Made by a program: the position numbers and the translations under genes | The notes under the pieces: generated by a model | Databases searched by the model: none | What the model was told of the DNA's origin: nothing | Seen by the model: the letters and a program-made list of their open reading frames with translations, nothing else | DNA from: a virus | Taxonomy: Duplodnaviria > Heunggongvirae > Uroviricota > Caudoviricetes | Strand: one strand, 5' to 3' | Virus record (IMG/VR): IMGVR_UViG_3300039366_000282 | Span: 1 to 18,260 of that record | DNA: 18,260 nucleotides | Shown: in pieces, positions 2,632 to 18,260 of the stretch | Layout: each line of letters begins with the position of its first letter | Numbering within the stretch: the first letter of the stretch is position 1

Positions 2632-2649
2632 ATTTTATAACCCAGATAC

Positions 2650-2676
2650 GGGCGCCAGAAATGGCGCCTTTTTTAT
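2650..2676 (+). terminator. Rho-independent terminator after J
   Basis: GGCGCCA-GAAA-TGGCGCC perfect 7-bp GC-rich stem followed by TTTTTTATT, starting 19 nt after the J stop. Confidence 0.55.
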
Positions 2677-2698
2677 TGCAGAAAAGCGAGAGGTAATT

Positions 2699-3298
2699 AT
2701 GCGTAAATTATGTGCTGTTATTCTGTCCGCAGTAGTCTGGCTGGTTGCCGCTGGTACGCCAGCGAGCGCAGCAGAGCATCAGTCCACACTAAGCGCCGGG
2801 TATCTTCAGACCCATACTGATATGCCAGGCAGCGATGACCTGAAGGGCATTAATGTGAAATACCGTTATGAATTTACGGACACGCTGGGGCTGGTGACGT
2901 CATTCAGTTATGCCAATGCCAAAGATGAGCAAAAAACGCATTACAGCGATACCCGCTGGCATGAAGATTCAGTGCGTAACCGCTGGTTCAGCATGATGGC
3001 GGGGCCATCTGTACGCGTGAATGAATGGTTCAGTGCTTATGCGATGGCGGGTATGGCTTACAGCCGTGTGTCGACCTTCTCCGGGGATTATCTCCGCGTA
3101 ACTGACAACAAGGGGAAAACGCACGATGTGCTGACCGGAAGTGATGACGGTCGCCACAGCAACACGTCTCTGGCGTGGGGGGCTGGCGTGCAGTTTAACC
3201 CGACCGAATCCGTGGCCATTGACCTTGCTTATGAAGGTTCCGGCAGTGGTGACTGGCGCACTGACGGTTTCATCGTGGGTGTCGGTTATAAATTCTGA
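2699..3298 (+). CDS. lom: Lom outer-membrane protein (Ail/Lom family beta-barrel)
   Basis: 199-aa ORF with N-terminal signal peptide (MRKLCAVILSAVVWLVAAGTPASAA), C-terminal ...GVGYKF typical of OMP barrels; matches lambda Lom from memory; RBS GAGAGG 7 nt upstream of ATG; position immediately downstream of J as in lambda. Confidence 0.85.
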   Translation: MRKLCAVILSAVVWLVAAGTPASAAEHQSTLSAGYLQTHTDMPGSDDLKGINVKYRYEFTDTLGLVTSFSYANAKDEQKTHYSDTRWHEDSVRNRWFSMMAGPSVRVNEWFSAYAMAGMAYSRVSTFSGDYLRVTDNKGKTHDVLTGSDDGRHSNTSLAWGAGVQFNPTESVAIDLAYEGSGSGDWRTDGFIVGVGYKF

Positions 3299-3325
3299 TT
3301 AGCCAGGTAACACAGTGTTATGACA

Positions 3326-3351
3326 GCCCGCCGGTTCAGGCGGGCTTTTTT
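3326..3351 (+). terminator. Rho-independent terminator after lom
   Basis: GCCCGCC-GGTTCA-GGCGGGC stem-loop followed by TTTTTT. Confidence 0.55.
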
Positions 3352-3362
3352 GTGGAGTGGAT

Positions 3363-5738
3363 ATGGCAGCAGTAAAAATCTCAGGTGTGCTGAAAGATGG
3401 TGCGGGAAAACCAATACAGAACTGCACTATTCAACTGAAGGCAAAGCGTAACAGCACCACGGTACTGGTGAACACGGTGGCCTCTGAAAATCCGGATGAA
3501 GCCGGGCGTTACAGCATGGATGTTGAGTATGGCCAGTACAGCGTTATCCTGCTTGTTGAAGGTTTTCCGCCTTCACATGCCGGAACCATTACCGTCTATG
3601 AAGGTTCCAGACCAGGTACGCTGAATGATTTTCTCGGTGCCATGACGGAAGATGATGTCATGCCGGAGGCATTGCGTCGTTTTGAGGAAATGGTGGAAGA
3701 AGCGGCACGCAACGCCGAAGCCGCCTCTCAGAGCGCAGCGGCGGCAAAGAAATCCGAAACTGCAGCGGCATCATCGAAGAACGCGGCGAAAACCTCAGAA
3801 ACGAATGCAGCTAATAGTGCACAGGCGGCAGCGACCTCACAGACTGCATCAGAAAACTCCGCGACAGCAGCCAAAAAATCAGAAACCAACGCGAAAAATA
3901 GCGAGACAGCCGCAAAGACGAGCGAAACCAACGCAAAGTCCAGCCAGACGGCAGCGAAAACCAGCGAAACGAATGCCAAAGCCAGTGAAACTGCGGCGAA
4001 AAGCAGTCAGGATGCAGCAGCCGAAAGCGAGAGCGCGGCAGCCGGTTCTGCGACTTCAGCTGCTGGATCAGCAACTGCTGCGGCTAACAGTCAGAAAGCA
4101 GCGAAGACGAGTGAAACTAACGCAAAGTCCAGCCAGACGGCAGCGAAGACCAGCGAAACGAATGCCAAAGCCAGCGAAACTGCGGCGAAAAGCAGTCAGG
4201 ATGCAGCAGCCGAAAGCGAGAGTGCTGCAGCTGGTTCTGCAAGCGCGGCTGCTGCTTCTGCCACTGCATCAGCTAACAGTCAAAAAGCAGCAAAAACCAG
4301 TGAAACCAACGCAAAGGTGAGCGAAACAGCGGCTGCGAACTCAGCGAAAGCATCGGCAGCAAGCCAGACGGCAGCTAAAGCAAGCGAAGATGCAGCCAGA
4401 GAGTACGCAAGCCAGGCTGCGGAGCCGTATAAATATGTCTTACAGCCGCTGCCTGATGTGTGGATACCATTTAACGATTCGCTGGATATGATTACGGGCT
4501 TTTCGCCGTCATATAAAAAGATTGTTATTGGTGATGATGAAATAACGATGCCTGGCGACAAGGTTGTTAAGTTTAAACGCGCATCGAAAGCAACCTATAT
4601 TAATAAATCTGGTGTGCTGACAGAGGCTGCCATTGACGAGCCACGGTTTGAACGTGATGGCCTGCTTATTGAGGGGCAAAGAACGAACTACATGCTCAAT
4701 TCGGAAAGCCCTGCCAGTTGGGGGCGATCGTCAAATATGGATGTTCCCGAAACCGGGACGGATAGTTTTGGTTTTACCTATGGAAAGTTTGTCTGTAACG
4801 ATTCTCTGATTGGGCAAACCTCAGCCATTAATATGGCATCAATTGCTGCAACAAAGTCAGTTGATGTCTCAGGCGATAATAAATACGTGACAACCTCATG
4901 TCGTTTTAAAACAGAACTGCAGGTAAGGTTGCGTATCCGATTTGATAAATATGACGGTAGCGCAACAACTTTTCTTGGTGATGTGTATATTGATACACAA
5001 ACGCTTGAAATTAATATGACAGGCGGCGCTGCCTCAAGGATTACAGCGAGAGTCAGAAAGGACGAAGTTATCGGATGGATTTTTGCAGAGGCAACAATTC
5101 AGGCAATTGATGGGGAGTTAAAAATAGGTTCTCAGATACAGTATTCTCCTAAGCAGGGCGGGGCAACCGTATCTGGTGACTATATTTATCTGGCCACCCC
5201 ACAAGTAGAAAATGGGCCTTGTGTATCATCTTTTATTATATCAGGAACGACGGCGGCGACCCGCGCAAGCGATATAGTCACAGTTCCCATTAAGAATAAT
5301 CTTTATAATCTTCCTTTTACGGTTCTTTGTGAGGTACATAAGAACTGGTATAAAACGCCAAATGCAGCACCGCGTGTTTTTGATACCGGCGGTCATCAAA
5401 CCGGAGCGGCTATTATTCTTGGCTTCGGTTCTTCAGCAGATTACGACGGATTTCCTTATTGCGATATTGGTGGGTCTAACAGACGGATAAACGAAAATGC
5501 ATCACTTGAAAAAATGGTTATGGGGATGCGTGTAAAGTCTGATCAGTCTACATGCGCAGTAAGTAACGGGCGTATATCCAGCGAAACAAAAACCACATGG
5601 TCCTGTATTCAGAACACCGCAATTATCCGTATTGGAGGCCAGACTACAGCCGGGTTACGTCATTTATTTGGTCATGTAAGGAATTTCAGAATATGGCACA
5701 AGGCATTGACTGATGCTCAGGTGGGGGAGTCAATCTAA
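3363..5738 (+). CDS. stf: Side tail fibre protein: lambda Stf-like N-terminus, heptad-repeat shaft, divergent AT-rich C-terminal domain
   Basis: N-terminus MAAVKISGVLKDGAGKPIQNCTIQLKAKRNSTTV... matches lambda Stf from memory; ATG at 3363 preferred over track GTG 3357 (GGAG 5 nt upstream); long Ala/Ser/Thr/Lys heptad region (KTSETNA/KSSQTAA...); C-terminal ~430 aa encoded by visibly more AT-rich DNA, ending in a LamG-like motif (..VRNFRIWHKALTDAQV..). Confidence 0.8.
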   Translation: MAAVKISGVLKDGAGKPIQNCTIQLKAKRNSTTVLVNTVASENPDEAGRYSMDVEYGQYSVILLVEGFPPSHAGTITVYEGSRPGTLNDFLGAMTEDDVMPEALRRFEEMVEEAARNAEAASQSAAAAKKSETAAASSKNAAKTSETNAANSAQAAATSQTASENSATAAKKSETNAKNSETAAKTSETNAKSSQTAAKTSETNAKASETAAKSSQDAAAESESAAAGSATSAAGSATAAANSQKAAKTSETNAKSSQTAAKTSETNAKASETAAKSSQDAAAESESAAAGSASAAAASATASANSQKAAKTSETNAKVSETAAANSAKASAASQTAAKASEDAAREYASQAAEPYKYVLQPLPDVWIPFNDSLDMITGFSPSYKKIVIGDDEITMPGDKVVKFKRASKATYINKSGVLTEAAIDEPRFERDGLLIEGQRTNYMLNSESPASWGRSSNMDVPETGTDSFGFTYGKFVCNDSLIGQTSAINMASIAATKSVDVSGDNKYVTTSCRFKTELQVRLRIRFDKYDGSATTFLGDVYIDTQTLEINMTGGAASRITARVRKDEVIGWIFAEATIQAIDGELKIGSQIQYSPKQGGATVSGDYIYLATPQVENGPCVSSFIISGTTAATRASDIVTVPIKNNLYNLPFTVLCEVHKNWYKTPNAAPRVFDTGGHQTGAAIILGFGSSADYDGFPYCDIGGSNRRINENASLEKMVMGMRVKSDQSTCAVSNGRISSETKTTWSCIQNTAIIRIGGQTTAGLRHLFGHVRNFRIWHKALTDAQVGESI
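3906..4283 (+). repeat. 189-bp (63-codon) near-identical in-frame tandem duplication inside the tail-fibre shaft
   Basis: acgcaaagtccagccagacggcagcgaa... occurs at 3931 and again at 4120 (period 189 bp) with only a few substitutions; partial further units flank it. Confidence 0.85.
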
Positions 5739-6019
5739 TGAAAGATTTAACACTCAAATTTCCCGACAGGGCCGACTTTTCGGCCTTTATGGAGAGCATT
5801 GGCTATTATGATGACGAGTTGATGCAGGATGATATTCTTATTGACGTGATAGGTAACGTGTACAAAGAAACCGGAGAACTGACTGAAGATGGCGAACCGG
5901 TATGTGTTAAGGAAGACGGATATTTTGTAAACGTGCGCATCATTAATGATTCGCAAATATCGTCATTATTCGATGAATACGTGGTTGCTGTTGAGCATCA
6001 ACTTCGTGGCTGGATGTGA
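5738..6019 (+). CDS. Hypothetical 93-aa acidic protein, translationally coupled to the tail-fibre gene
   Basis: ATG overlaps the stf stop (TAATG at 5736-5740); GGGGGAG 8 nt upstream; no family recognised. Confidence 0.5.
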   Translation: MKDLTLKFPDRADFSAFMESIGYYDDELMQDDILIDVIGNVYKETGELTEDGEPVCVKEDGYFVNVRIINDSQISSLFDEYVVAVEHQLRGWM

Positions 6020-6028
6020 GGAAGAAAA

Positions 6029-7069
6029 ATGGCTACATCGACAGTAATTCCTGATGACATCAAAACGCTAAAATCCGACGTTAGCAAATTAAAAAACGAT
6101 CAAGGAAGCTACGCAACAAAATTATATGTAGACAGCAAAGATGAAATCGTTGGTGACTGGTCTGCTTCATGGTATCAGCAGGTATTGCCAACTAGCGGAG
6201 CTATATTTGGGAGAAAACTCCGCTCAACTCACAGGACGGCAGGTGTTGAGGATGCGTATTGCGAACTATACCTCAAAAAATGGATAGACAGTCCAGGTAA
6301 CGCAATGGCGCGCCTTAACCTGAACGATAACGGGACAAACATTTGCTGGGACTTTACCAACCTTTATGGCGGTACGATGATTTTTCCCGGTGACAGCGGA
6401 TACCTCAAAATGGGTAACTGCCTTATGTCATACAGCAAGCGTGGAAGTAACGCGCTTATTAAATTTGATTACACCGACACATTACAGATCAAATATGCCA
6501 ATCATGGGTCAACCATGACATTAAACACACAGGGAACCGCTTATGCTGGTGTTACTGCTCAATTGTGGGGCAACACCAGCCGTCCTGTTGTTTATGAAGT
6601 CGGTGTTGATGGTGGCGCTTATATGTTCTATGCGCAGAAAAATACCGATAACACCTATATGTTAAGCGTTAATGGTGCATGTCATGCCACCGCATTTAAC
6701 CAGCATTCCGACCGGGATCTGAAAGACAACATTCAGGTGATCGATAATGCAACCGACCGCATCCGTAAAATGAACGGCTATACATACACGCTTAAAGAAA
6801 ACGGTATGCCCTATGCTGGTGTCATTGCACAGGAAGCTCTGGAAGCAATCCCAGAAGTTGTAGGTTCCGCAATGAAATATCAGGACGGTGCAAGCGGATC
6901 GGAAGGTGAAGAAGGTGAACGTTATTACACAGTAGATTATTCTGGTGTTACTGGCTTGCTTGTTCAGGTAGCCAGAGAGTCAGACGACAGAATAACAGCA
7001 CTGGAAGAAGAAAACGCAGAATTAAGACAAAGATTATCTGCAATTGAGGCGGCGCTTGCGTCTAAATAA
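6029..7069 (+). CDS. Tail fibre/tailspike-like protein with C-terminal intramolecular chaperone (peptidase S74-type) domain
   Basis: RBS GAGGAAG before ATG; C-terminal region contains ..NQHSDRDLKDNIQVIDNATDRIRKMNGYTYTLKENG..YAGVIAQEALEAIPEVV.. followed by a coiled-coil tail (ALEEENAELRQRLSAIEAA), matching the SD-x-R-LK-x-NI self-cleaving chaperone signature of phage fibres as recalled. Confidence 0.65.
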   Translation: MATSTVIPDDIKTLKSDVSKLKNDQGSYATKLYVDSKDEIVGDWSASWYQQVLPTSGAIFGRKLRSTHRTAGVEDAYCELYLKKWIDSPGNAMARLNLNDNGTNICWDFTNLYGGTMIFPGDSGYLKMGNCLMSYSKRGSNALIKFDYTDTLQIKYANHGSTMTLNTQGTAYAGVTAQLWGNTSRPVVYEVGVDGGAYMFYAQKNTDNTYMLSVNGACHATAFNQHSDRDLKDNIQVIDNATDRIRKMNGYTYTLKENGMPYAGVIAQEALEAIPEVVGSAMKYQDGASGSEGEEGERYYTVDYSGVTGLLVQVARESDDRITALEEENAELRQRLSAIEAALASK

Positions 7070-7075
7070 TATTAA

Positions 7076-7098
7076 GGGGCCGAGCGCCCCGTTTTATT
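7076..7098 (+). terminator. Rho-independent terminator after the fibre module
   Basis: GGGGC-CGAGC-GCCCC hairpin followed by GTTTTATT, 7 nt after the stop at 7069. Confidence 0.55.
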
Positions 7099-7111
7099 GG
7101 GTAGGATGAAA

Positions 7112-7399
7112 ATGGATATAACACCTTTTCTTCATGCGCTTTGTGCTGTGGCTGCGCAGGTACTGGTTGGTTTTTTTACCGGAAACTGGGCTTACGGGGC
7201 GATAGCCGGTTGTACATTCTTCATTGCGCGGGAACACACCCAGGCAGAATATCGCTGGATTGAAATGTTCGGGCATGGCAAGCGGATTAACATGCCGTGG
7301 TGGGGCGGTTTTGATCCACGTGCATGGGATGTGGCAAGCCTGATGGATTTTGCTGTGCCGGTGGTGGCGTGTCTGCTGATCTGGATGTTGATCCGTTAA
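7112..7399 (+). CDS. Small hydrophobic (predicted membrane) protein, ~96 aa, unknown function
   Basis: ORF with two strongly hydrophobic stretches (ALCAVAAQVLVGFFTGNWAYGAIAGCTFFIA and FAVPVVACLLIWMLI); AGGA 5 nt upstream of ATG 7112 (track start 7097 is TTG; 7106 is an alternative ATG). Confidence 0.45.
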   Translation: MDITPFLHALCAVAAQVLVGFFTGNWAYGAIAGCTFFIAREHTQAEYRWIEMFGHGKRINMPWWGGFDPRAWDVASLMDFAVPVVACLLIWMLIR

Positions 7400-7747
7400 A
7401 TATAAAAAGTAAAAAGCCGCAGTAACTTGTCATGATAGGATACTGCGGCTGGCTGGTTAACTTTCGATAGTGCGAGTATTGAATGATTTCCAGCCGTTAC
7501 CGATTTTATATAACTGCAGTGGAATTATTCAACACACAGGCAAAACGGAATAAGCTGAGAAAAAAGCGTGCTTACCCAATCTGGGGTAAATCACGTCTGA
7601 ATGACACCTGAAAACAGGTGGTGGCCTCAAGAAGGCTTGGAATATTCTTCTTTAATGTTATGTAATTTATTGATTTTTCGTGTACGATTTTAAGACATTT
7701 ATTCCAAGAAAAATTTTTAACTCTTTGATTTTTCGACTCTGTATCAT

Positions 7748-7809
7748 CGGTCTCGAAAACCGGAGTAGGGGCAACTCTACCGGGGGTTCAAATCCCCCTC
7801 TCTCCGCCA
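7748..7809 (+). tRNA. Partial tRNA-Ser(CGA) (serU-type), 3' 62 nt only, without 5' acceptor/D-arm; att-core duplicate at the prophage boundary
   Basis: Anticodon stem-loop CCGGT-CTCGAAA-ACCGG (anticodon CGA), long variable arm, T-arm GGGGG-TTCAAAT-CCCCC, 3' acceptor strand TCTCTCC + G + CCA; no matching 5' strand (GGAGAGA...) upstream; matches E. coli serU 3' portion from memory. Confidence 0.75.
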
Positions 7810-8087
7810 ATCATTCAACAAAATCAATCACTTACAAAGCATTTTTGATTTTGTCGTGCATAAATCCCTGCATTAAAATTCCTTTCTCTCGCTCAATTTT
7901 TCTTACTACTGATGCTGTTTTTTACCATTTTGCCGCGCGTCGGGCATCCACTTTTATGCTCTCGAGTTCACACTCTTAACAACAACTTAGCCATTCCCCC
8001 GTCTCTGATGACAAAACAGTTGAACTTCAATTGTTCCAAACGGATCCTGTGAAGATATATCAAAGGAAATGGATTGTTGGAGGATGG

Positions 8088-8924
8088 ATGAAAAGAAGTG
8101 AAATCAGGAAAGCACTGGAAGCATGGTTTGATGTGGAACGCTATGAGGCGATAGAGAAACTCACCTTACAGCAGTTTTATGTTGAGGTTGAGCGGCGCAT
8201 CTTGGCTTACAGAATGTTGTTGAGCCGGAACACCATACCTACCTTTAACCGATTAATGCTGGATGATTACCGCAACAAGATCCTCAGCGGTGAAATCTTT
8301 TTCAGTGGTGATACTGAGACCATTGGATATGAGCTTGCCAGAACCTATGCGGTAAACCCTACGACAAGAAGCCACGCGCAATTTTATGCGAAAACTCTGT
8401 CATTAACCGAAGCCACGCCTGAACTCTCTGGGTTAAGCCAGTCTGAATTTCTGTCCGAATATCTGAAAGAGACATCCCTTAATAATCTTTCACGCATTAC
8501 TGTCGATATTCATCTGGAAGAAGCATCAACCGAAGAGATCATTGAACATCTGAAAGTGCTGATCCCTCAATGGAAGAGGCAGCTTAAGATGACGTCTCCA
8601 GCTCCAAGAGAGTATCGTTTCGGCAAAAGCACGTTCAGAAAAATTATTGAATATCGTCTTATCCCGATGATGGACCTGATCTTCTGGGGAGAAGATAACG
8701 GCATTAAAATCCCGCTTTCACTGATTTCCTCGTTGCTTCATGAGGACAGCGACAACGATCGTGATGAAGGAATGCTCAAGGCAACAGATTACCCGTTAGC
8801 AATGGCTTTTCTGACGGATGCGAGCTATCTGAAATCGCTTGAAGATTACATGATGGAAAACAACCACTTGAAAGACTCCCCTGTTGAAAAGCATGTAGAA
8901 GACGACAGGAATAAGAAAAAATAA
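8088..8924 (+). CDS. Hypothetical protein (278 aa from ATG 8088)
   Basis: Long ORF; track start 8031 is TTG; GGAGGA lies just upstream of ATG 8088; no family recognised. Confidence 0.5.
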   Translation: MKRSEIRKALEAWFDVERYEAIEKLTLQQFYVEVERRILAYRMLLSRNTIPTFNRLMLDDYRNKILSGEIFFSGDTETIGYELARTYAVNPTTRSHAQFYAKTLSLTEATPELSGLSQSEFLSEYLKETSLNNLSRITVDIHLEEASTEEIIEHLKVLIPQWKRQLKMTSPAPREYRFGKSTFRKIIEYRLIPMMDLIFWGEDNGIKIPLSLISSLLHEDSDNDRDEGMLKATDYPLAMAFLTDASYLKSLEDYMMENNHLKDSPVEKHVEDDRNKKK

Positions 8925-9140
8925 GCCAAGTAAAAAGGGTTACGTTCGCTCCGTGCGAACGTGATCGCATCCAGTGTCAACCGTTATCTTTCCATCCGTG
9001 CCCCTTCGAATTTTTCAAAAAAAACTTATTTGAACGTCCCTAAATTGTCATAAGCAAAATCGCTATCATTGTTCACGTCGAAACAACATAGAGAAAAGCG
9101 AAATCTCATAGAGATTACTTACAATAATAGAGGACAGACA

Positions 9141-9359
9141 ATGAAAGAAAATAATGAAACCAGCGTAAAACGATTTATCCGCGTTCCTGATGTTTTAAAT
9201 CGAGTGGGATTTAGTCGCACGACTTTATATGAACGTATTAAGGAAGGAAACTTTCCAGACAGAGTAAAAATAGGGCCAAGATGTGTCGCCTTTGTCGAAA
9301 GTGAGATTGATGAATGGATTGAAGCGGCTATTCGAAACTCACGCCAGAACGCAGCATAA
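9141..9359 (+). CDS. AlpA-family phage/island transcriptional regulator (small HTH)
   Basis: 72-aa product ..FIRVPDVLNRVGFSRTTLYERIKEGNFPDRVKIGPRCVAFVESEIDEWIE.. matches the AlpA/prophage CP4-57 regulator pattern from memory; RBS AGAGGA before ATG 9141. Confidence 0.7.
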   Translation: MKENNETSVKRFIRVPDVLNRVGFSRTTLYERIKEGNFPDRVKIGPRCVAFVESEIDEWIEAAIRNSRQNAA

Positions 9360-9440
9360 AAACAGAAACAAGATCTCGTGTCGAACAGATATCTGTTCGC
9401 TCAGGGCATCTTATTATCCTAAACAATAATGGAGAAAAAT

Positions 9441-9731
9441 ATGAAGATAGAGCTTATTACGACAAAACAGTTTATTGAACAAGCCGAATGTTATTTCAGG
9501 CGCTATATGGACGGATTGCGGAGGAATGCACCAGATGATTTTTATTATTTTCTCAACAATAAATACAATATGAATGACATTATGGAAAGTATCATTAAAA
9601 AAACGAGATATCATTTTTACGATGACACAGAAGAAAACCAAAGGAATCGGATTTATGGAGAAGTAAGCCACTGTAAGGTAAAACAACACCTTCGTCAGCT
9701 TTGGATTATCTATAAGTGTGTATACCGCTAA
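9441..9731 (+). CDS. Hypothetical small protein (96 aa)
   Basis: ORF with GGAGA 5 nt upstream of ATG 9441 (track start 9429 also possible); AT-rich; no recognised family. Confidence 0.4.
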   Translation: MKIELITTKQFIEQAECYFRRYMDGLRRNAPDDFYYFLNNKYNMNDIMESIIKKTRYHFYDDTEENQRNRIYGEVSHCKVKQHLRQLWIIYKCVYR

Positions 9732-9783
9732 TATTTATACAAATATTTTGCTATTCCAATATTAAACTAAAGAGGAAATAAAA

Positions 9784-10080
9784 ATGAATACATTTAAAAA
9801 TAAAACTACTAAAATCTTTTATGTTGTGTCCTTGCATATCTATGCGGAGCTTTTTAACTCAAAGGATAAAACGACCAGTAATATGATTATAACGCATGTA
9901 ATGGATCATGAGTTTGTTTGTAAGCTAATCGATCTGGCGATGAGAAATGCTGAAAAGCATCTTCTGAAAAAAGCATGGAAAAAGAACGCGGCTGAAAAAC
10001 TATCTGAGGTGGATTTTAAAGAGGTTAGGCAGGCATTAGCCAAAATGCACTACACTGTTCTGGCGGAATCAATATGTTGA
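9784..10080 (+). CDS. Hypothetical small protein (98 aa)
   Basis: ORF preceded by strong RBS AAAGAGGAAATAAAA-ATG; no recognised family. Confidence 0.4.
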   Translation: MNTFKNKTTKIFYVVSLHIYAELFNSKDKTTSNMIITHVMDHEFVCKLIDLAMRNAEKHLLKKAWKKNAAEKLSEVDFKEVRQALAKMHYTVLAESIC

Positions 10081-10152
10081 TATGTTCTGGTGTCTATCTG
10101 CCCCTTCTTGGGGCTGATAACAAATATTATTTTTCTATCCAAGGAGCAAAAA

Positions 10153-10395
10153 ATGACTGATGAATTTCATGTGATGTATATGTATAAAAAAATCCAAGCG
10201 GAAGCCGTAACTACTGACATCAAAACACTTGAACAGCTTTTGAAAAAGTTCAGGAGCGTTGTCAACGAACGTCGTGAAGAATACTATCAGGAGATTGGTG
10301 AGAAAAAAGCGCATAAGTTGAAAATGAAAAGATTACAAAGAATGCTTGAGAAAATGGCGTGTGACCGAGTCTCGCCAGAAGATCTCATTGACTGA
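10153..10395 (+). CDS. Hypothetical small charged/helical protein (80 aa)
   Basis: RBS AAGGAG 6 nt upstream of ATG 10153 (track ORF starts earlier at 10090 without an RBS); product lysine/glutamate-rich. Confidence 0.4.
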   Translation: MTDEFHVMYMYKKIQAEAVTTDIKTLEQLLKKFRSVVNERREEYYQEIGEKKAHKLKMKRLQRMLEKMACDRVSPEDLID

Positions 10396-10443
10396 TAAGT
10401 GTTCTGTATAATAACTTATCTATATAAAAACATGGAGGTGGTT

Positions 10444-10833
10444 ATGGGCTGGGAGCTTCACATAGTAAGAACGGAACATTGGTTCGATAGCGCAAGTGTT
10501 CCAATCAGTAGTGAAGAATGGCTCCAGCTTGTTAATGATGATAAAGAACTATCCATAGATAACAAGAACGGTGATTTTTTCGCCATATGGAGTGGTCAAA
10601 GTGAACTCGATGAACCTTGGCTTGACTGGAGTGATGGAAGAATTTCAACAAAACATCCTGACGAAGCCCTTTACTGTAAAATGTTGCAGATAGCTGAGAA
10701 GCTACATGCTGTAGTCGTTGATGAGGATGATCACAAATATTCGCTACCAAGTGACCTGATGAATCCTTCATGGGCGAATTCATCACTGACTGATAAAAAA
10801 CAAACTTTATGGAAAAGGTTGTTTTCAAAATAG
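10444..10833 (+). CDS. Hypothetical protein (129 aa, Trp/Asp-rich)
   Basis: RBS GGAGGTGG before ATG 10444 (MGWELHIVRTEHW...); track ORF starts at 10399. Confidence 0.45.
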   Translation: MGWELHIVRTEHWFDSASVPISSEEWLQLVNDDKELSIDNKNGDFFAIWSGQSELDEPWLDWSDGRISTKHPDEALYCKMLQIAEKLHAVVVDEDDHKYSLPSDLMNPSWANSSLTDKKQTLWKRLFSK

Positions 10834-11139
10834 TTTTGTCAAGTATTCAGGGAATAGCAATGGCACGCCGAATTGATCTTCATGAAATTGTTAACGCTCT
10901 CAACGGGAGCTTTGTTAGTCGAAACAACGACTTTAGAAGATACGGGGCTATTGGGCAGTTAAAATCATTGGCTATCTGTATTAGCTCAGACTTGATCTGG
11001 TGGTTTTCACTGGTAGCACACTATCAAATCTGACAGTCTGCTATGAGCGAGGAGCGGAAGTTAGTACCTCCGATGCTATAGCGCAGCGTTCTTAATTATG
11101 TAAAAATATTCTACCATTCAAGTAAAGTAAGTGAAAACA

Positions 11140-12057
11140 ATGGAATTTAAACTTGATCTAAAATCCAATGCTTTAGATAGTTTTAATGAAGCCATCAAAA
11201 AATTCCAGCAAGGAGAAAATGGAGATTATAAAGCTTTCAAGTTTGCTATACTACATTTGTCTCATTGTTTTGAGTTGACGTTGAAAATGTATATTCAAAC
11301 ATTAGACGAAAACTTGATTTTTTCAAAATGCTACAGAGCAGTAATAGAGCGTGCCAAAAGTGACAAAGTCAATCTTATTGAAGCTTTTTATAAAATGGAG
11401 GCTGAAGAATTCGACTTTGAAGAACTTATTAAAGGACATAAAAATCCTCATACTATTACTTTGGATCAAGCAATATCGATAGCTACACATGAAAAGTGTA
11501 GCATAACCTCAGTGGACTTAGTTGATAAAGAGTTACTAGATGATATCGCTTGGATGAAAGATCTTAGAAATTCAATTGAGCATTACGAATTCTCGTTTAC
11601 TATTAAATATGTTCGTCTGGCAATGGGGCGTTTGGTCAGAGGGTTGGCTGAGTTCTCTGATATATTTGGTTTATACGATCTAGATAAAGAAGTTTCTAAG
11701 GAAATATCTAATTCCTATAATATACTTTCTGACGAATATGAGCATAATGTTCATGAAGGTTATCTTGATGTAGCTGATGCTAGAAAAGCAGCATTTCTTG
11801 GGGTTAGACCAAAGTTTTTTGAGTTAGTTAATTGGAAAGAATATATCTGCGATTACTGTGGTCATGAGACAATGATTCAAAATAACGATTCTACTTCAGG
11901 ATATCGTTGTACGTATTGCGGTGCCGAAGACTCAGGCTCAATTGAAGTCACATGTGATGTTTGTGGTGCTGAATGGCCTGAAGAGGAAATGAGTTCTTGG
12001 CTTGGGGAGGGGACTAACACTTGTCCTGACTGTAGAGATATTAGCAACAAACCATGA
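11140..12057 (+). CDS. HEPN-like (R-x4-H) domain protein with C-terminal four-CxxC zinc-ribbon region; candidate abortive-infection/RNase effector
   Basis: 305 aa from ATG 11140 (track GTG 11131 alternative); helical N-terminal region ending in ..WMKDLRNSIEHYEF.. (R-N-x3-H at nt 11566-11583); C-terminus carries CDYC, CTYC, CDVC, CPDC pairs; RBS weak. Confidence 0.55.
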   Translation: MEFKLDLKSNALDSFNEAIKKFQQGENGDYKAFKFAILHLSHCFELTLKMYIQTLDENLIFSKCYRAVIERAKSDKVNLIEAFYKMEAEEFDFEELIKGHKNPHTITLDQAISIATHEKCSITSVDLVDKELLDDIAWMKDLRNSIEHYEFSFTIKYVRLAMGRLVRGLAEFSDIFGLYDLDKEVSKEISNSYNILSDEYEHNVHEGYLDVADARKAAFLGVRPKFFELVNWKEYICDYCGHETMIQNNDSTSGYRCTYCGAEDSGSIEVTCDVCGAEWPEEEMSSWLGEGTNTCPDCRDISNKP

Positions 12058-12326
12058 CTAAGATTAATCCTTGATTGAAGATGCATTCTTGTCCGCCTCT
12101 CATGTTTTATAATGTATAATGCTTCTGGCATTATAGCGTGAGAGGCGGAAGATATTGTTAACCGAATTGGCAAGCCTAATTTATAACATTATTGCTAATA
12201 TGGAGGAATAGATTTCTGTTCATCCGCTTACATGGAGTATATACTGTAAACCTTACATCCTTTGAATAAACGGGATGGGAGGCGTCCATCCTGTTTAAGA
12301 TCTCCATCATAAAGATTAAAAATTTC

Positions 12327-12851
12327 TTATTCTTCTGAAGTAAGCATCTTCTCCTGATGGGGGTGATACTTATATGCATAATTAAAGAGGGTCAGATCTA
12401 GTTCAAACGTTTCTCGCATACCATCCATCGTTACGGACGTATTCAGTAATCCACGACGGGCCAGAGATTCTACACCCGGTTCAGGATCATCAAGCCTATT
12501 CATTTGTCCCCATGTCATAACAGAACCACCATGCGTCACAAAGTGCATGACTACTTCTTTTTCTCTTCCAGTCAGAGAATTATAAAGCGTTGCCAGTCGT
12601 TTTTCTGCAACTGCCTCTCCCTTGCGGGTAATAATTCGCAGATATAATCCTCCCGCAATAATCTTTACAACCGGAAAAATAATAACAAAAGAAAACAGAG
12701 TCAGTACATAATCGCGAAGAATAAGATAACAGGTAACTCCTGCGATTCCGGAGACAAATATTGCGATGTTAATGCTGAAGTCTTTCTCCGAATAAACACG
12801 ATCAAACATTTTTTCAAGAAATTCTGTCACGATTTCATTCCTTGTTAACAC
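12327..12851 (-). CDS. Hypothetical membrane protein (two predicted TM helices near N-terminus, soluble C-terminal domain)
   Basis: Minus-strand ORF; hydrophobic segments FSINIAIFVSGIAGVTCYLIL and LTLFSFVIIFPVVKIIAGGLYL; start ambiguous (GTG 12851 or ATG 12809, neither with a clear SD). Confidence 0.45.
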   Translation of the reverse strand: MLTRNEIVTEFLEKMFDRVYSEKDFSINIAIFVSGIAGVTCYLILRDYVLTLFSFVIIFPVVKIIAGGLYLRIITRKGEAVAEKRLATLYNSLTGREKEVVMHFVTHGGSVMTWGQMNRLDDPEPGVESLARRGLLNTSVTMDGMRETFELDLTLFNYAYKYHPHQEKMLTSEE

Positions 12852-13283
12852 TAAAGATGCTCGAGTGGGTATGAATATACCGCAATAGTGCGGGAGGATT
12901 TCATTAGTGTCCCATCAAAATCTGGCTTGAACTGGCTATTGAGTCGCTAATCATTATAAATTTTAGCTGTCAATACTACCATAATAAATAGCAGCATTCT
13001 CAAGAGTTGTGGCGAACGCAACAAAACTCTCCCCAACAACCCGCTTGTAAAGATGCTTTTATACTTCTAACGTCCGCTCTTGGCACGGAGTTGCCTGTCA
13101 AATTAGGTTTAGATCTGTGCGATAGCTGTGTCAGGTCAAATCTGAGCTAATAGAGCTATCGATACCGGCGTCACTTCGATGAGGTTTTCTCTCATAGCCG
13201 AGAGCGACACCCTCTCTTCGCACGTAGGATTTTCTTTGGGAGAGAACAAAAACCGCCAAATTTGGTTGACGGCTTTATTGTGA

Positions 13284-13688
13284 TCAGAGCGCGAAGTCTT
13301 CCAGCGTTTTACCAGCTTCGATAGCAGCAGCGATCGCTTTAGGAGTACGGCCTTGACCTGTCCAAGTCTGCTCATTACCATTTTCATCTGTATATTTGTA
13401 TTTAGCAGGACGAGGAGCACGAGTTGATTTGGCTTTAGGCTGGGATGAACTAACAGCAGCAAGGAGTTCTGCCGGATCAATGCCATCTTCTAACAGTTTC
13501 TGGCGGAAGGCTTCCAGTTTAGCCTGACGTTCTTCTTGTTCTTTACGGGCTGAATTTTCTTCCTCACGGCGATCTTCAACGACAGCAGAGAGCTTTTCCA
13601 GCATCTCTTCCAGAGTTGTCAGATCTGTTTCACGAGCATGTGCGCGAAGTGTACGAATATTGTTCAGTGCCTTGAGAGCTTCACTCAT
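13284..13688 (-). CDS. H-NS family nucleoid-associated protein (island-encoded H-NS/StpA paralog)
   Basis: 134-aa product [28 protein letters not shown].. with C-terminal DNA-binding motif [12 protein letters not shown] and ..[12 protein letters not shown]..; matches E. coli H-NS/StpA from memory. Confidence 0.85.
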
Positions 13689-13844
13689 AGTATGTCATCC
13701 GGTGTTTTAAAATGGGCGATTAATAAAAATAATGCTTACGGTGATGTTGGAAAAATCAAAAAAACAGTCAGTAAATAATATAGTAAACATTATCGTTTAA
13801 GCAATCTAATACATCTCATTTCACACGAATAACATAGGAGTGCT

Positions 13845-14324
13845 TTAAAGAGACATTTTCCTGCGCTTCTGGCTTGATGGCTCGAACTCTGACGAGATGC
13901 GAGATAGCTGGTCAAGACTGTATTCAATTGAACGCTGGAACTCAACAGCGGCTTCTGTGCGTTGTTTTATGACCAAGGCTACTATTTCTTCATCACTCTT
14001 TTCTGAAATAGCCTTACGGTATAACACGCGTTCGTTAAATAAATCGAGATTTCCTGATGATTTGGCTGATGTGTTAGCTTTTGAACTGCTGATAGGATTT
14101 AGCTCATCAATAAAGTATTCAATAAGCGATTCTCTCTTTTTATCCAGCCTGCGAAGTTCGGTATGTGCGGACTTAAATTTCTGAGCTTTTATCAATGGAA
14201 TATCATCAGAACGCAGTTTGCGATATTCATTTCTGTATTCTTCTATCGGAATATGGTTTTTTAGTTCTTTGACTGTATTTACGTATTCGATTAAATCACT
14301 GTTGTCTGTTTTTACTTTTCTCAT
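13845..14324 (-). CDS. Hypothetical protein (159 aa, charged/helical)
   Basis: Minus-strand ORF with GAGG 9 nt upstream of ATG 14324; no recognised family. Confidence 0.45.
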   Translation of the reverse strand: MRKVKTDNSDLIEYVNTVKELKNHIPIEEYRNEYRKLRSDDIPLIKAQKFKSAHTELRRLDKKRESLIEYFIDELNPISSSKANTSAKSSGNLDLFNERVLYRKAISEKSDEEIVALVIKQRTEAAVEFQRSIEYSLDQLSRISSEFEPSSQKRRKMSL

Positions 14325-14600
14325 AAGAAATACCTCGTAGATAAAATAGTTGATATATTTATATTACGAGATATGGTGCAGGTGTCAAATTTATGGGGCT
14401 GGGCGCTATTTTTGTATTTTACTTTTAGCTACTGTTTCTTTTGAGAAGAACCGAGAGTTAAATGTGCCGTTCTTAGTCAGTATCTTAGCGTCCACTAATA
14501 ATTTTAACCGTTCTTCATCGGTTCTCTTAGCCGCTAATTTTTTCACCTTTTTTGTCAGATCTTCAATATCTATTATTTACATCCTTATCTTTTAAGTTGT

Positions 14601-15401
14601 TTAAACAATCTGAGGTGTTTTATACTGTTCAAAAATAAGATTTCCTGAATATGTATAAATTTCTATTTTTCCTACTTTACCATCAGTGCCTTTTATCGAG
14701 AAACGAATTAATCTTTCATTATAATATTTTTCTAACAAGTCTGGTCGTTCAGTAAAATATCTTGATTTTGTTGAGCGATCTTTCAGATAGTCGCAGCTTG
14801 AACAAACCTGCTTTTTGAAATCCTTCTCAGATAAACCACTTTCTTTTATTTTTAAAGAAATAAAAGCCTTTAAAGGTCGTTCATATTCATCTCTTTCTTT
14901 TGCTTTGCGTATTTGTTCTTCTTTCTTGCGCTGTTCTTCAATACGGTAAAGTCTGCCTTGTTCTTCCTGCGCTCGTATTATATCCTCTTGAATCATTTTA
15001 CTGATGATTGAGGCAGGAACAACACTGATACCTTCAGACCACCCCTGATAAGGATTATTGTTTTGTATATTTCGGACTGTAGCAGATATTCTGTCTATAT
15101 CCAGTTCTTTATCAAAGGAAACAATGCGTTGTCTGTTTTCTTTTGATATGAGCTTAGCCGTGTTTACCGGGGATTCCAGACCCTTTAATTTGAATGTAGC
15201 TACGGCACTGTTGCGACTTCTATAATATAATGCTTGTTTCTTATCTCCAATATAACATTCAAGGTAAGAGAAAATCTTAAACTCCTGAATGCCAAATGTT
15301 TCCTCAAGCATGGTCATCTGCTCAGCCAATATATTTAGTATATCACTCTTGGATAGTTTTTCGTGGAGCTTAATCTCAAGCGAACCGGGTAGTTTTTTCA
15401 T
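14601..15401 (-). CDS. Hypothetical protein (266 aa), second gene of minus-strand operon
   Basis: Minus-strand ORF; AAGGA 7 nt upstream of ATG 15401; 27-bp gap to the upstream gene; central lysine/glutamate-rich helical segment; no recognised family. Confidence 0.5.
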   Translation of the reverse strand: MKKLPGSLEIKLHEKLSKSDILNILAEQMTMLEETFGIQEFKIFSYLECYIGDKKQALYYRSRNSAVATFKLKGLESPVNTAKLISKENRQRIVSFDKELDIDRISATVRNIQNNNPYQGWSEGISVVPASIISKMIQEDIIRAQEEQGRLYRIEEQRKKEEQIRKAKERDEYERPLKAFISLKIKESGLSEKDFKKQVCSSCDYLKDRSTKSRYFTERPDLLEKYYNERLIRFSIKGTDGKVGKIEIYTYSGNLIFEQYKTPQIV

Positions 15402-15428
15402 TGTTATTTCCTTGTTGTTGTTATTTTA

Positions 15429-16163
15429 TCAGGATACTTTCTGCATATGAGAGTCGGCGTCAACAGCGTTTCTTCTTGCTTCCTCATTTTCCTTTGTTCT
15501 TTTATATACTTTTCGTGGTTTATCAATATGTATGCTGTTATTTGTATTAGGAACAGCATTATTCTTTTTCTTCTTACTGAAAACAAATGCGTCAGTATAG
15601 ATTTCTTTGGTCTCAGTTTCTAAGGATAGGGTTCTTCTTTCACTTTTTGACATAGCTGAATAACTTTCTGGATACTGTTCTATTTCTGCGCAAAGATTGC
15701 GAGCGTTGCTCAACTGTTCTTTACGTTTCTGATCCAGTTGGTGACTCATTCCTTTAGCGAAAATGTTAGAGTTGATATAGAGATGACCATGATGCTCGAC
15801 GAGTATTCCTTTCTGTCTGAGTTTTTTAAAAATGTTAGACATATTACCGGAAGCGATGTTCAGTGCTTTACACAGCGATGATTGCGAAAGATTGATCAGA
15901 TTTCCAAACTCCATATACTCCAGAATATAGGTTAATACACGGAATTCATTCTTGGATATGTCAAGATCAGAGAAGACACGAAAGTTGGAAGTAAAAGCAA
16001 ATACATAAGGTTGTGAAAACGATATAGCTTTATCTTCCTCAGAAGAAATAACTGTCGTTGATTTTATTTCTTTGTTTTGTAGCAAGCGTCTTGCGATATC
16101 AATCTTTTGTTCTGTAGTTAATGATTCAAATAAGTGTAATAGATCAGCATCTGGTGTATTCAT
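15429..16163 (-). CDS. Winged-helix DNA-binding protein, RepL-like (putative replication initiator or regulator)
   Basis: 244 aa from ATG 16163 (track start 16226 would lie upstream of the predicted promoter); segment ..ISKNEFRVLTYILEYMEFGNLINLSQSSLCKALNIASGNMSNIFKKLRQKGILVEHHGHLYINSNIFAKG.. resembles RepL-type wHTH proteins as recalled; repeated palindromes upstream. Confidence 0.5.
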   Translation of the reverse strand: MNTPDADLLHLFESLTTEQKIDIARRLLQNKEIKSTTVISSEEDKAISFSQPYVFAFTSNFRVFSDLDISKNEFRVLTYILEYMEFGNLINLSQSSLCKALNIASGNMSNIFKKLRQKGILVEHHGHLYINSNIFAKGMSHQLDQKRKEQLSNARNLCAEIEQYPESYSAMSKSERRTLSLETETKEIYTDAFVFSKKKKNNAVPNTNNSIHIDKPRKVYKRTKENEEARRNAVDADSHMQKVS

Positions 16164-16197
16164 ATTATTCTCTCTTATTATTTTTGTTATATATATT

Positions 16198-16226
16198 TTA
16201 ATACTATGCAAAAAAGTGAAAGTCAA
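16198..16226 (-). promoter_or_regulatory. Putative sigma70 promoter for the minus-strand operon (TTGACT-17-TATTAA)
   Basis: On the minus strand, -35 TTGACT (16221-16226) and -10 TATTAA (16198-16203) are separated by 17 nt, about 35 nt upstream of ATG 16163. Confidence 0.4.
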
Positions 16227-16287
16227 TAGTAGAACTATAAATAAAATAGGAAGTATATTCTTATGACAATGTTATATGTTAAAAAAA

Positions 16288-16371
16288 CTATGTTCGAACA
16301 TAGATCTTGCTATGTTCGAACATAGGACGGATCTATGTTTGAACATAGGAGTTTGCTATGTTCGAACATAG
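16288..16371. promoter_or_regulatory. Array of four 16-bp palindromes CTATGTTCGAACATAG (one with a single mismatch) at 22-23-bp spacing; putative operator/iteron array
   Basis: Perfect palindromes at 16288-16303, 16310-16325, 16356-16371 and CTATGTTTGAACATAG at 16333-16348; located 60-150 bp upstream of the predicted promoter of the RepL-like gene. Confidence 0.6.
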
Positions 16372-16627
16372 GAAAAAAAGTTGTGAAGCCGCGATTTTAC
16401 TGGTCCGGGACTATGCTTATAATTAAATAATTAGTAAGAAGTTAAGAGAGTCCAGTTTTACTTTTGCGTTATGTTTTAGTGGTTTTACAGGGGGTATTGT
16501 ATTCCTTAATAACTGCTATCAGCGAAGTGATTGTTTCGAACAATCACGAACCGCTGCTTTTATTGCGAGAGCTTAATTAAGATTTCTTTTGTTTTATTAG
16601 CGTCTACGACGCGATCTTTTTTTGGAT

Positions 16628-16790
16628 AAATCCATCATTAACAGGGGCAAGCCCTGTCCAGCAAAGTGATTGTTGCCAACAATCACGAAGTGCTGCTACT
16701 AAGGATATAGTTTTCCTATGTGTTTAAGAGCAAATGCTATATGTCAGAGGGAATATCATGTTCGCATAGGATCTGAATTCTAACTTGGTG
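16628..16790 (+). repeat. Copy 1 of a ~160-bp non-coding direct repeat module
   Basis: aaatccatcattaacaggggcaagccctgtccagcaaagtgattgttgccaacaatcacgaagtgctgctactaagg... recurs at 17124 at roughly 90% identity (period 496 bp); contains the palindrome GTGATTGTT-GCC-AACAATCAC. Confidence 0.8.
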
Positions 16791-17123
16791 GAGGGAATGA
16801 TCTTTATACTGATCGCTTTGTTGTCCATTGATAAAATATTAATGCATTATAGCTGAACAAGGAAAATAGTTTTATACCAGTATTAGGGGCGTAGCCGTGC
16901 GCCAGCACAATGTATGTATTTTCAAAAAAATAATTGAATGTATCAGGTAAAAATAAATATCAATAAATGTAAGTAAGAGTGTTCTGTAAACTGTTAATAA
17001 ACCGCACAGGAAGTGTGGTAAGGATTTGGGATCTGAAAGATAACACATATAACCATCTTCACGCTTAAAGCTCTTATAACTGATTACAGGCAGTAATTTA
17101 TATGGGAAAAATTATTAATTGAA

Positions 17124-17286
17124 AAATCCATCATTAACAGGGACAAGCCCTGTCCAGCAAAGTGATTGTTGGCAACAATCACGAAGTGCTGCTACTAAAG
17201 ATATAGTTTTCCTATACGTTTAAGAGCAAATGCTATATGTCAGATGGGGAATGCTATGTTTAAAAATAGGATCCGAATTAAAAGTT
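17124..17286 (+). repeat. Copy 2 of the ~160-bp non-coding direct repeat module
   Basis: Near-identical to 16628-16790; palindrome GTGATTGTT-GGC-AACAATCAC at 17162-17182; hairpin CAGGG-ACAAG-CCCTG. Confidence 0.8.
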
Positions 17287-17520
17287 AAAAGGAAAATAGA
17301 TCTGACTATGAGCGAATACATTCGCTTATTAGCTCATAGTAGTAAAATAAAATACAAAATGTCAGTTTTAGGGCGTAGCCGTGCATAAGCACAGAGATAA
17401 AAATCTTTTCAAAAAGAAGTTTAATAATAAGAAGTAAAATCATTAATAAATGAAAATATATTTGATTTTTACACTTGCGATAGAGTATTAAACAGTAATA
17501 AATAAAAAAAGGAAAATATA

Positions 17521-17790
17521 ATGAATAATATCAAAATGATCACACTCTTCCATCCACATGACAAAACACCATTTATGATCTGTATTGTAAACACAGTAGA
17601 AGATACAGAACTTGGATTGAAATTAACTCTTGAAAACGGCAACAGCATTTGTGTCAATAACTATGACCATTATCTGTTATCAGAGTCTGTAAGTCGTTGT
17701 GATAAAGACAGGGTGAAAAATATTTATATCCGTTTGGTTTCAGAACTCACACAGATGAGTGAAGAAACTATAAAATCACAGATGTTATAA
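17521..17790 (+). CDS. Hypothetical small protein (89 aa)
   Basis: ORF with RBS AGGAAAATATA-ATG; possible promoter TTGATT-18-TATTAA at 17462-17491; no recognised family. Confidence 0.4.
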   Translation: MNNIKMITLFHPHDKTPFMICIVNTVEDTELGLKLTLENGNSICVNNYDHYLLSESVSRCDKDRVKNIYIRLVSELTQMSEETIKSQML

Positions 17791-17873
17791 AACATCTATA
17801 AAAGCATAATAAATATTTTTGATATTACGATTAGTTGCATGGTATTAAATAAAAACAATAACAGGAAAATATC

Positions 17874-18260
17874 ATGAGAAAAATAAAAACAAAAATCTAC
17901 TTGCCTACAGCTTTAACAGGAAACATGGATAAACACTATATCCCTGTTTTAGAGGATTTAAGAAAAACGATATACAGCGACAGAATGTTATCAAGGCTTG
18001 CAGATAGCGGCAATATTGTTATCCATAGTTCAGTTGGGTATCCGGTTGCTAAGTATAAAAACACGGGGATTAGCATAGGCATAGAACCATTAAATCCGAT
18101 GATAAGACAAGATCTGACTCTTGGATATATCGTGGTAGTCAGAAACGGAAAAGCATCACAGGAGATTAATGGTTTACTTAACAGGTCATTGCCAAAAGCG
18201 ATAAGCACTTTTAAGGACCATATTAATGAATATGAAGCAGCAAAAAGTAAAATGCGATAA
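17874..18260 (+). CDS. Hypothetical protein (128 aa)
   Basis: ORF with RBS CAGGAAAATATC-ATG (same context as the preceding gene); stop TAA at the window end. Confidence 0.4.
   Translation: MRKIKTKIYLPTALTGNMDKHYIPVLEDLRKTIYSDRMLSRLADSGNIVIHSSVGYPVAKYKNTGISIGIEPLNPMIRQDLTLGYIVVVRNGKASQEINGLLNRSLPKAISTFKDHINEYEAAKSKMR

Follow-up and report, generated by a model that had tools for sequence, protein, structure and literature searches.

A full-length H-NS paralogue, very probably Hfp (H-NSB), encoded on an AT-rich serU island beside a lambdoid prophage

The window, by which we mean the whole stretch of 18,260 nucleotides analysed here, divides at a tRNA gene remnant into a prophage part (1-7747) with a GC content of 50.4 % and an island part (7810-18260) with a GC content of 36.9 %, which bears out the AT-rich island proposed in the initial annotation. 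The remnant is the 3′ 62 nucleotides of the tRNA-Ser gene serU (7748-7809, plus strand) and was placed by alignment to Escherichia coli strains 3-72 and 536. From position 7748 onwards the window matches the serU regions of both strains, while the DNA 5′ of this junction is unrelated to them. The link to serU was shown by alignment because a search of the window with ARAGORN returned no complete tRNA. Positions 1-7809 carry a lambdoid prophage tail module, which ends at the junction within serU and includes the tail gene J (49-2631), Lom (2699-3298), an Stf-like fibre bearing AAKTSETNAK repeats (3357-5738) and a further fibre that has an S74 chaperone domain (6029-7069). As only the 3′ 62 nucleotides of serU are present with lambdoid prophage 5′ of them, the prophage has integrated into serU beside the island. 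A search with the whole window found no complete E. coli genome holding at least 80 % of it in one place, and the exact prophage-plus-island arrangement was not found among the complete E. coli genomes searched.

The stretch from 7748 to 18260 is 100 % identical to islands in E. coli 3-72, 8178, Es_ST80, DEF2, DEF10 and FEA3, and is also found at 100 % identity in one human and one horse isolate, the horse copy being interrupted by an IS3 element. In strain 3-72 the island immediately follows tRNA-Ser serU and lies beside mtfA, asnT and the yersiniabactin island. The order of genes is that of the serU island of strain 536, starting with a DUF6387 gene (8088-8924, plus strand; Pfam, 97 % amino acid identity to 536) and an AlpA-family regulator (9141-9359, plus strand; Pfam, 94 % amino acid identity to 536) and continuing with two small ORFs, an 80-amino acid H-NST, variable cargo and hfp. 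The minus-strand genes preceding hfp, in an order also common with 536, are DUF4756, a 266-amino acid ORF and a RepL-like gene. Cargo is the sole difference in gene order between the two islands: the neighbour of hfp in 536 is a DUF6404 gene, in whose place the window has a 305-amino acid ORF (plus strand) and a 167-amino acid ORF (minus strand) at 11140-12830. Among ten island ORFs examined with PADLOC, nothing was detected besides a partial N-terminal match of the 305-amino acid ORF, whose first 85 residues match the candidate PDC-S64 (E 1.6e-16). NCBIfam models gave no match on the island ORFs beyond H-NST, and Rfam models at gathering thresholds gave none in the window.

The H-NST gene, hnsT (10153-10395, plus strand), encodes a truncated H-NS consisting of the oligomerisation domain only, a putative H-NS antagonist, and is labelled 'hypothetical' by RefSeq in some genomes. 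Its product matches Pfam Histone_HNS_N (E 3.6e-12, 46.5 bits) and is 94 % identical to the 536 copy. The window H-NST carries Ala16, Leu30, Arg60 and Arg63, whereas the 536 copy carries Val16. For its action against H-NS, H-NST requires Ala16, Leu30, Arg60 and Arg63, the Val16 form from uropathogenic E. coli (UPEC) having been reported as non-functional (PMC3897749); judged by its residues, the window H-NST is probably active. At the other end of the island, the RepL-like gene (15429-16163, minus strand) has weak Pfam matches to RepL and HTH_36 and is named 'replication/maintenance protein RepL' by RefSeq. Upstream of it lie four tandem iteron-like palindromes of 22-23 bp with the unit CTATGTTCGAACATAG (16285-16373, minus strand). 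These belong to an AT-rich, repeat-bearing non-coding stretch 5′ of the RepL-like gene (16285-17247), which also contains three copies of a 39-nucleotide palindrome-containing unit and a 127-nucleotide direct repeat (16625-16751 and 17121-17247). This stretch may serve the island as an origin or operator.

The gene that we identify as hfp, also called hnsB, occupies positions 13284-13688 on the minus strand, running from an ATG at 13688 to a TGA at 13284 with the stop codon counted in, and has a GC content of 47.7 %. It encodes a full-length H-NS paralogue of 134 amino acids, with neither a frameshift nor an internal stop. Both Pfam H-NS domains are present, Histone_HNS_N over residues 1-78 (E 2.2e-24, 85.6 bits against a cut-off of 24.5) with Histone_HNS following at residues 95-133 (E 1.3e-16, 60.5 bits against a cut-off of 25.6), and both matches exceed chance by far, in agreement with the initial description of the locus as a complete H-NS/StpA-family protein. 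A search of PDB sequences matched 3NR7, the N-terminal oligomerisation domain of H-NS (H-NS 1-83), with an E value of 3e-24, and 2LRX, StpA's DNA-binding domain at the C-terminal end, with an E value of 8.5e-16. An H-NST-type truncated antagonist at this position was ruled out, the ORF being of full length with a DNA-binding domain. An overlapping ORF of 116 amino acids in another frame (13136-13486) was regarded as spurious since it lies inside hfp.

The DNA-binding motif, which had been described as intact, is indeed so, the core T108-W-T-G-Q-G-R-T-P116 (TWTGQGRTP) being the same in H-NS and StpA. In the N-terminal domain residues R12, R15, R19, L26, L30, L33, R54, K57, D68 and I70 are kept, as are R90, R93, P94, W109, T110 and Q112-P116 in the linker and C-terminal domain. 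The first dimerisation site is 76 % identical to that of H-NS (35 of 46 residues). The basic linker retains K87, R90, R93 and P94 and differs from H-NS by the changes of K83 to Q and K89 to T, both of which are also present in the Hfp of strain 536. The loss of these two lysines may underlie the weak DNA binding reported for Hfp.

To place the protein we used the serU region of 536 and the hns and stpA genes of K-12 as references. The window protein shares 124 of 134 residues (93 %) with Hfp of UPEC strain 536 (ECP_1927; L004:31488-31892 in the 536 serU region), 61 % with K-12 H-NS (b1237) and 54 % with K-12 StpA (b2669). The suggestion in the initial annotation that the locus may correspond to the H-NS-like protein of a serU-associated island in uropathogenic E. 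coli is thus correct, that protein being Hfp. A core H-NS orthologue was excluded by the 61 % identity and by a score of 175.6 bits against the NCBIfam H-NS equivalog NF008193, under its cut-off of 211. Similarly, an StpA orthologue was excluded by the 54 % identity, by a score of 165.9 bits against the StpA equivalog NF007656, under its cut-off of 202, and by a Thr rather than a Phe at position 21. As it falls under both equivalog cut-offs, the protein is neither the core H-NS nor the StpA orthologue. Neighbour joining of 83 H-NS homologues, taken from species-representative genomes, together with the references placed the window protein as sister to Hfp of 536 with the Enterobacter adelaidei protein next, all three lying within an accessory clade apart from core H-NS and StpA. 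The Hfp clade has been defined by more than 90 % identity (PMC7544231), and the window protein stands at 93 %. It also shares the location that marks the Hfp/H-NSB clade, on a low-GC island at a serU or asn tRNA gene and away from the hns and stpA loci. The names hnsB and hfp refer to one gene, which in E. coli sits on asnW or serU islands (Fitzgerald et al. 2020, PMC7544231). We consider it very likely that the window gene is hfp, the third paralogue of H-NS in E. coli, acquired horizontally and belonging to the serU island family. Both the gene and the island family are already known: Hfp/H-NSB was reported in 2005 and 2010 and received a family-wide phylogeny in 2020, and the exact window protein is already present in RefSeq (WP_021531398.1, H-NS family protein) in complete genomes.

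Directly upstream of hfp lies the DUF4756 gene (13845-14324, minus strand; 159 amino acids; Pfam DUF4756, E 1.3e-63). The two are separated by an AT-rich spacer of 156 nucleotides and 30.1 % GC (13689-13844, minus strand), which corresponds to where a proximal promoter has been reported in 536. This spacer is near-identical to that of 536, its T run being 4 nucleotides shorter in the window. In 536 a minor RpoS-type start site has been predicted 87 bp upstream of the hfp ATG, the principal start lies at a T 339 bp upstream, and an H-NS-binding motif lies between the -35 and -10 elements of the distal hfp promoter (PMC2814080). By alignment the equivalent of this distal promoter and start falls at 14023-14047 (minus strand), within the DUF4756 coding sequence. 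The 536 main start aligns to approximately 14023, where the flanking 30 nucleotides are the same as in 536. The H-NS-motif-like TCGATTTATT is found at 14038-14047, its single occurrence in the window, in a stretch identical to 536, and the putative -35 area differs from 536 at a few bases. A simple consensus scan found no minus-strand sigma-70 site in the hfp-DUF4756 spacer, so the assignment of the hfp promoter rests on the published mapping in 536.

Two further candidate elements were recognised by consensus matching alone. A promoter-like site 5′ of DUF4756 (14361-14388, minus strand) consists of TTGACA, a 16-nucleotide spacer and TAATAT and matches 10 of 12 consensus positions; both hexamers are kept in 536, where two spacer bases differ. 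A terminator-like hairpin with a T run (13249-13276, minus strand; 11-pair stem, 6-nucleotide loop, TTTT tail) begins 8 nucleotides past the hfp stop codon. Homology to 536 spans the segment from the promoter-like site 5′ of DUF4756 (approximately 14391) to the hfp stop codon and then ends, so the hairpin is absent from 536.

DUF4756 and hfp are adjacent in E. coli 536, ST131 4433, MRY15-117, 102651 and PA45B, and also in Enterobacter adelaidei and Citrobacter murliniae. DUF4756 lies directly 5′ of hfp in all of the E. coli, Enterobacter and Citrobacter islands examined (L004, L007 and L087-L090), where the two genes form a conserved two-gene module. The dN/dS of DUF4756 is 0.07-0.16. A search of 90 loci with our own HMM found no DUF4756 beside the Hfp-clade genes of Dickeya, Brenneria and Salmonella. 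We therefore rejected DUF4756 as an obligate or general partner of Hfp, the two being adjacent solely in the islands of E. coli, Enterobacter and Citrobacter. Both genes of the module are decaying in Citrobacter murliniae (L036:5349-6403), where the hfp orthologue is frameshifted with a stop after 56 amino acids and the DUF4756 beside it is truncated to 134 amino acids.

Megablast identified hfp homologues with at least 85 % nucleotide identity in 603 of 5,426 complete E. coli genomes (~11 %), the gene being chromosomal in every case. Divided by nucleotide identity, 10 were at ≥ 99 %, 102 at 95-99 %, 368 at 90-95 % and 123 at 80-90 %. Of the 10 genomes with an allele at ≥ 99 %, the nine observed to be 100 % identical over the surrounding 1.5 kb all label the locus as an H-NS family protein. 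The alleles at 85-87 % belong to related islands at asn-tRNA genes, which have the DUF4756-hfp module as well.

The Hfp of 536 has been characterised as a 134-amino acid H-NS-like protein, 57.7 % identical to H-NS and 52.2 % identical to StpA, encoded on a 23-kb island of 38 % GC at serU near the HPI (Mueller et al. 2009/2010, PMC2814080). The same study reported that Hfp forms heteromers with H-NS, that it is stable without H-NS, unlike StpA, and that hfp is repressed by H-NS. DNA binding by the 536 protein was weak, with EMSA shifts at 5-11 µM. It complements hns phenotypes and, in an hns background, represses bgl as well as capsule genes, acting chiefly in hns backgrounds and at low temperature; hfp single mutants of 536 showed little or no phenotype at 37 °C (PMC2814080). 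In Salmonella Hfp is a low-abundance protein, with H-NS, StpA and Hfp at a ratio of approximately 30:10:1 in S. Enteritidis. There hfp is de-repressed 16-fold in an hns mutant, and expression of hns, stpA and hilD was unaffected in an hfp single mutant (PMC7544231). Heteromer formation with H-NS and repression by H-NS are thus on record for both strain 536 and S. Enteritidis, and the window shares the conserved interface residues and promoter region. A 2020 review describes the serU island as encoding both H-NSB/Hfp and a truncated H-NST (PMC7074111).

Extrapolating from the 536 protein, Hfp would form homo-oligomers as well as mixed oligomers and filaments with chromosomal H-NS, and would bind AT-rich DNA more weakly than H-NS does. 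Since H-NS represses the hfp promoter, Hfp would be scarce while H-NS is plentiful, and would contribute further repression to some of the H-NS targets, chiefly under limiting H-NS or at low temperature. Hfp would then act as an accessory silencer, modulating the pool of H-NS and backing it up in hosts with the AT-rich island, a role that we consider very likely for the protein of this island too. The weak phenotypes of hfp single mutants suggest that its physiological contribution is modest or conditional.

Those weak phenotypes would also fit an hfp that is decaying, without function and a passive passenger of the island, a state of which the frameshifted 56-amino acid orthologue of Citrobacter murliniae with its truncated DUF4756 neighbour might be an example. 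For the window gene this is extremely improbable. Its ORF is intact and its dN/dS (Nei-Gojobori) is 0.13 against the 536 allele and 0.03-0.18 across all five alleles used for comparison, so that the gene is under purifying selection; between the serU alleles examined, the DNA-binding domain does not vary save for the last residue (L134 for I), and the gene is kept in 603 of 5,426 complete E. coli genomes. A working Hfp might also mainly oppose H-NS instead of assisting it: acting in a dominant-negative way, it would weaken the filaments of H-NS and turn on the genes of the island, any defence cargo among them. Hfp heteromerises with H-NS yet binds DNA less well, so mixed filaments could be weaker. 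We nonetheless hold such a role to be decidedly unlikely, as the DNA-binding domain of the window protein is intact, Hfp has been published to complement hns phenotypes and to give hns mutants added repression of bgl and capsule genes, a truncated protein dedicated to antagonism, H-NST (10153-10395), is already encoded on the island, and the window shows no recognisable defence system besides the partial PDC-S64 candidate match.

It is possible, if somewhat doubtful, that Hfp serves in the manner of the plasmid protein Sfh by coating the incoming AT-rich island, thus sparing the host a titration of H-NS and its fitness cost. Such a function, which is on record for Sfh (see the summaries in PMC7544231 and PMC7074111), would apply to an island that is being acquired, excised or replicated, and it overlaps with the role of accessory silencer. 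It is favoured by the low GC content of the island (36.9 %) and by the way in which hfp moves along with the mobile islands of E. coli, Enterobacter and Citrobacter, which occupy serU and asn-tRNA sites. The RepL-like gene and iteron-like repeats of the island, together with a MobQ relaxase in the island of strain 3-72, suggest in addition that the island copy number might change. Against this, Hfp is much rarer than H-NS (H-NS, StpA and Hfp at ~30:10:1 in S. Enteritidis) and binds DNA weakly, so that it would give poor relief from titration, and the island, at ~10 kb in the window and ~23 kb in 536, is small next to IncHI1 plasmids. We retain accessory silencing and back-up of H-NS as the preferred reading of Hfp.

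A host with this island would have a larger pool of H-NS-like proteins, comprising H-NS, StpA, Hfp and a probably active H-NST, which could alter the silencing of AT-rich acquired genes. Any such change in silencing would matter for reading the expression of island virulence or defence cargo. The initial annotation had gone further in suggesting that the paralogue can change silencing of the island itself, including any defence genes in it, for which we found no support, no result from the literature or from this analysis connecting Hfp with island cargo; with a single partial candidate from PADLOC, the idea of defence genes in the island is without firm support inside the window. The serU islands of other strains carry differing defence-like genes beyond the regions that match the window, including SIR2 and TIR in MRY15-117 (L088:2643-4707), TcpC/TIR/macro in 536 (L004:20919-23456), and a restriction endonuclease and an HTH and reverse transcriptase pair in 3-72 (L001:25637-26506 and 38301-39675), and the serU island family looks like a hotspot for cargo. 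One could imagine that Hfp, the Ala16 H-NST and the H-NS-repressed promoter in DUF4756 constitute a silencer/anti-silencer circuit of the island that sets the expression of its variable cargo, which would comprise the PDC-S64-like candidate in the window and restriction, RT, TIR and SIR2 genes in other serU islands; such a circuit might sense island copy number via the RepL/iteron module. We think this unlikely, and what the evidence shows is the co-location of its parts, namely hfp, hnsT, the promoter in DUF4756 and the RepL module. The value of the present finding is one of annotation, in that hfp identifies 7748-18260 as one of the EARL-related serU islands.

Among known systems, the Hfp of 536 and CFT073 (ECP_1927, ABG69928, WP_001287374.1) has the same length as the window protein, and its island shares the serU backbone, gene order and upstream DUF4756. 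The ten differences between the two proteins are Q17H, A24T, T34S, T35A, I36V, T73A, S78A, G80S, T86A and I134L. Nine of these affect the oligomerisation region and the linker, with helix 2-3 and the linker taking most of them, and the C-terminal domain is the same except for the last residue. The loci differ in the DNA 3′ of the hfp stop codon, in residue 16 of the companion H-NST (Ala in the window, Val in 536) and in the prophage that, unlike in 536, lies between the island and the 5′ part of serU in the window. The EARL/ROD21-like asn-tRNA islands of E. coli ST131 4433 and 102651 encode a full-length accessory H-NS of the Hfp clade with 84-87 % amino acid identity to the window protein (17-22 differences in 134) and share with the window a backbone of RepL ... 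DUF4756 and hfp plus small ORFs, an HTH regulator and DUF6387. They are, however, integrated beside ldtA/cobT or cbl/nac and not at serU, and a different integrase has been reported for them (PMC7074111).

Core H-NS (b1237) has the two-domain architecture and QGR motif of the window protein, which differs in being accessory, three residues shorter, and changed at C21 (to T), K83 (to Q) and K89 (to T); Hfp is also reported to bind DNA more weakly than H-NS and to be much less abundant. StpA (b2669) is 134 amino acids long like the window protein, and their C-terminal domains are closely alike, but StpA is a core protein where Hfp is island-borne, and the window protein lacks Phe21, a residue tied to the Lon sensitivity of StpA. 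Sfh, the plasmid R27 H-NS of the IncHI1 group, is like Hfp a horizontally acquired full-length H-NS paralogue, and proteins 63 % identical to the window protein are encoded on Salmonella plasmids of IncHI1 size. Unlike Hfp, Sfh is plasmid-borne, belongs to a separate clade, is abundant and has a demonstrated stealth role. H-NS2 of enteroaggregative E. coli 042 (EC042_2834, WP_001278198.1) is again a third H-NS paralogue encoded on the chromosome. It has been described as a close relative of Hfp that interacts with H-NS and Hha and is repressed by H-NS. H-NS2 has Leu at position 21 where the window protein has Thr, and its start site lies 41 nucleotides upstream of the ATG, compared with 339 nucleotides for hfp of 536. 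Strain PA45B, which is listed in the H-NS2 paper, carries an ordinary 536-type Hfp at serU.
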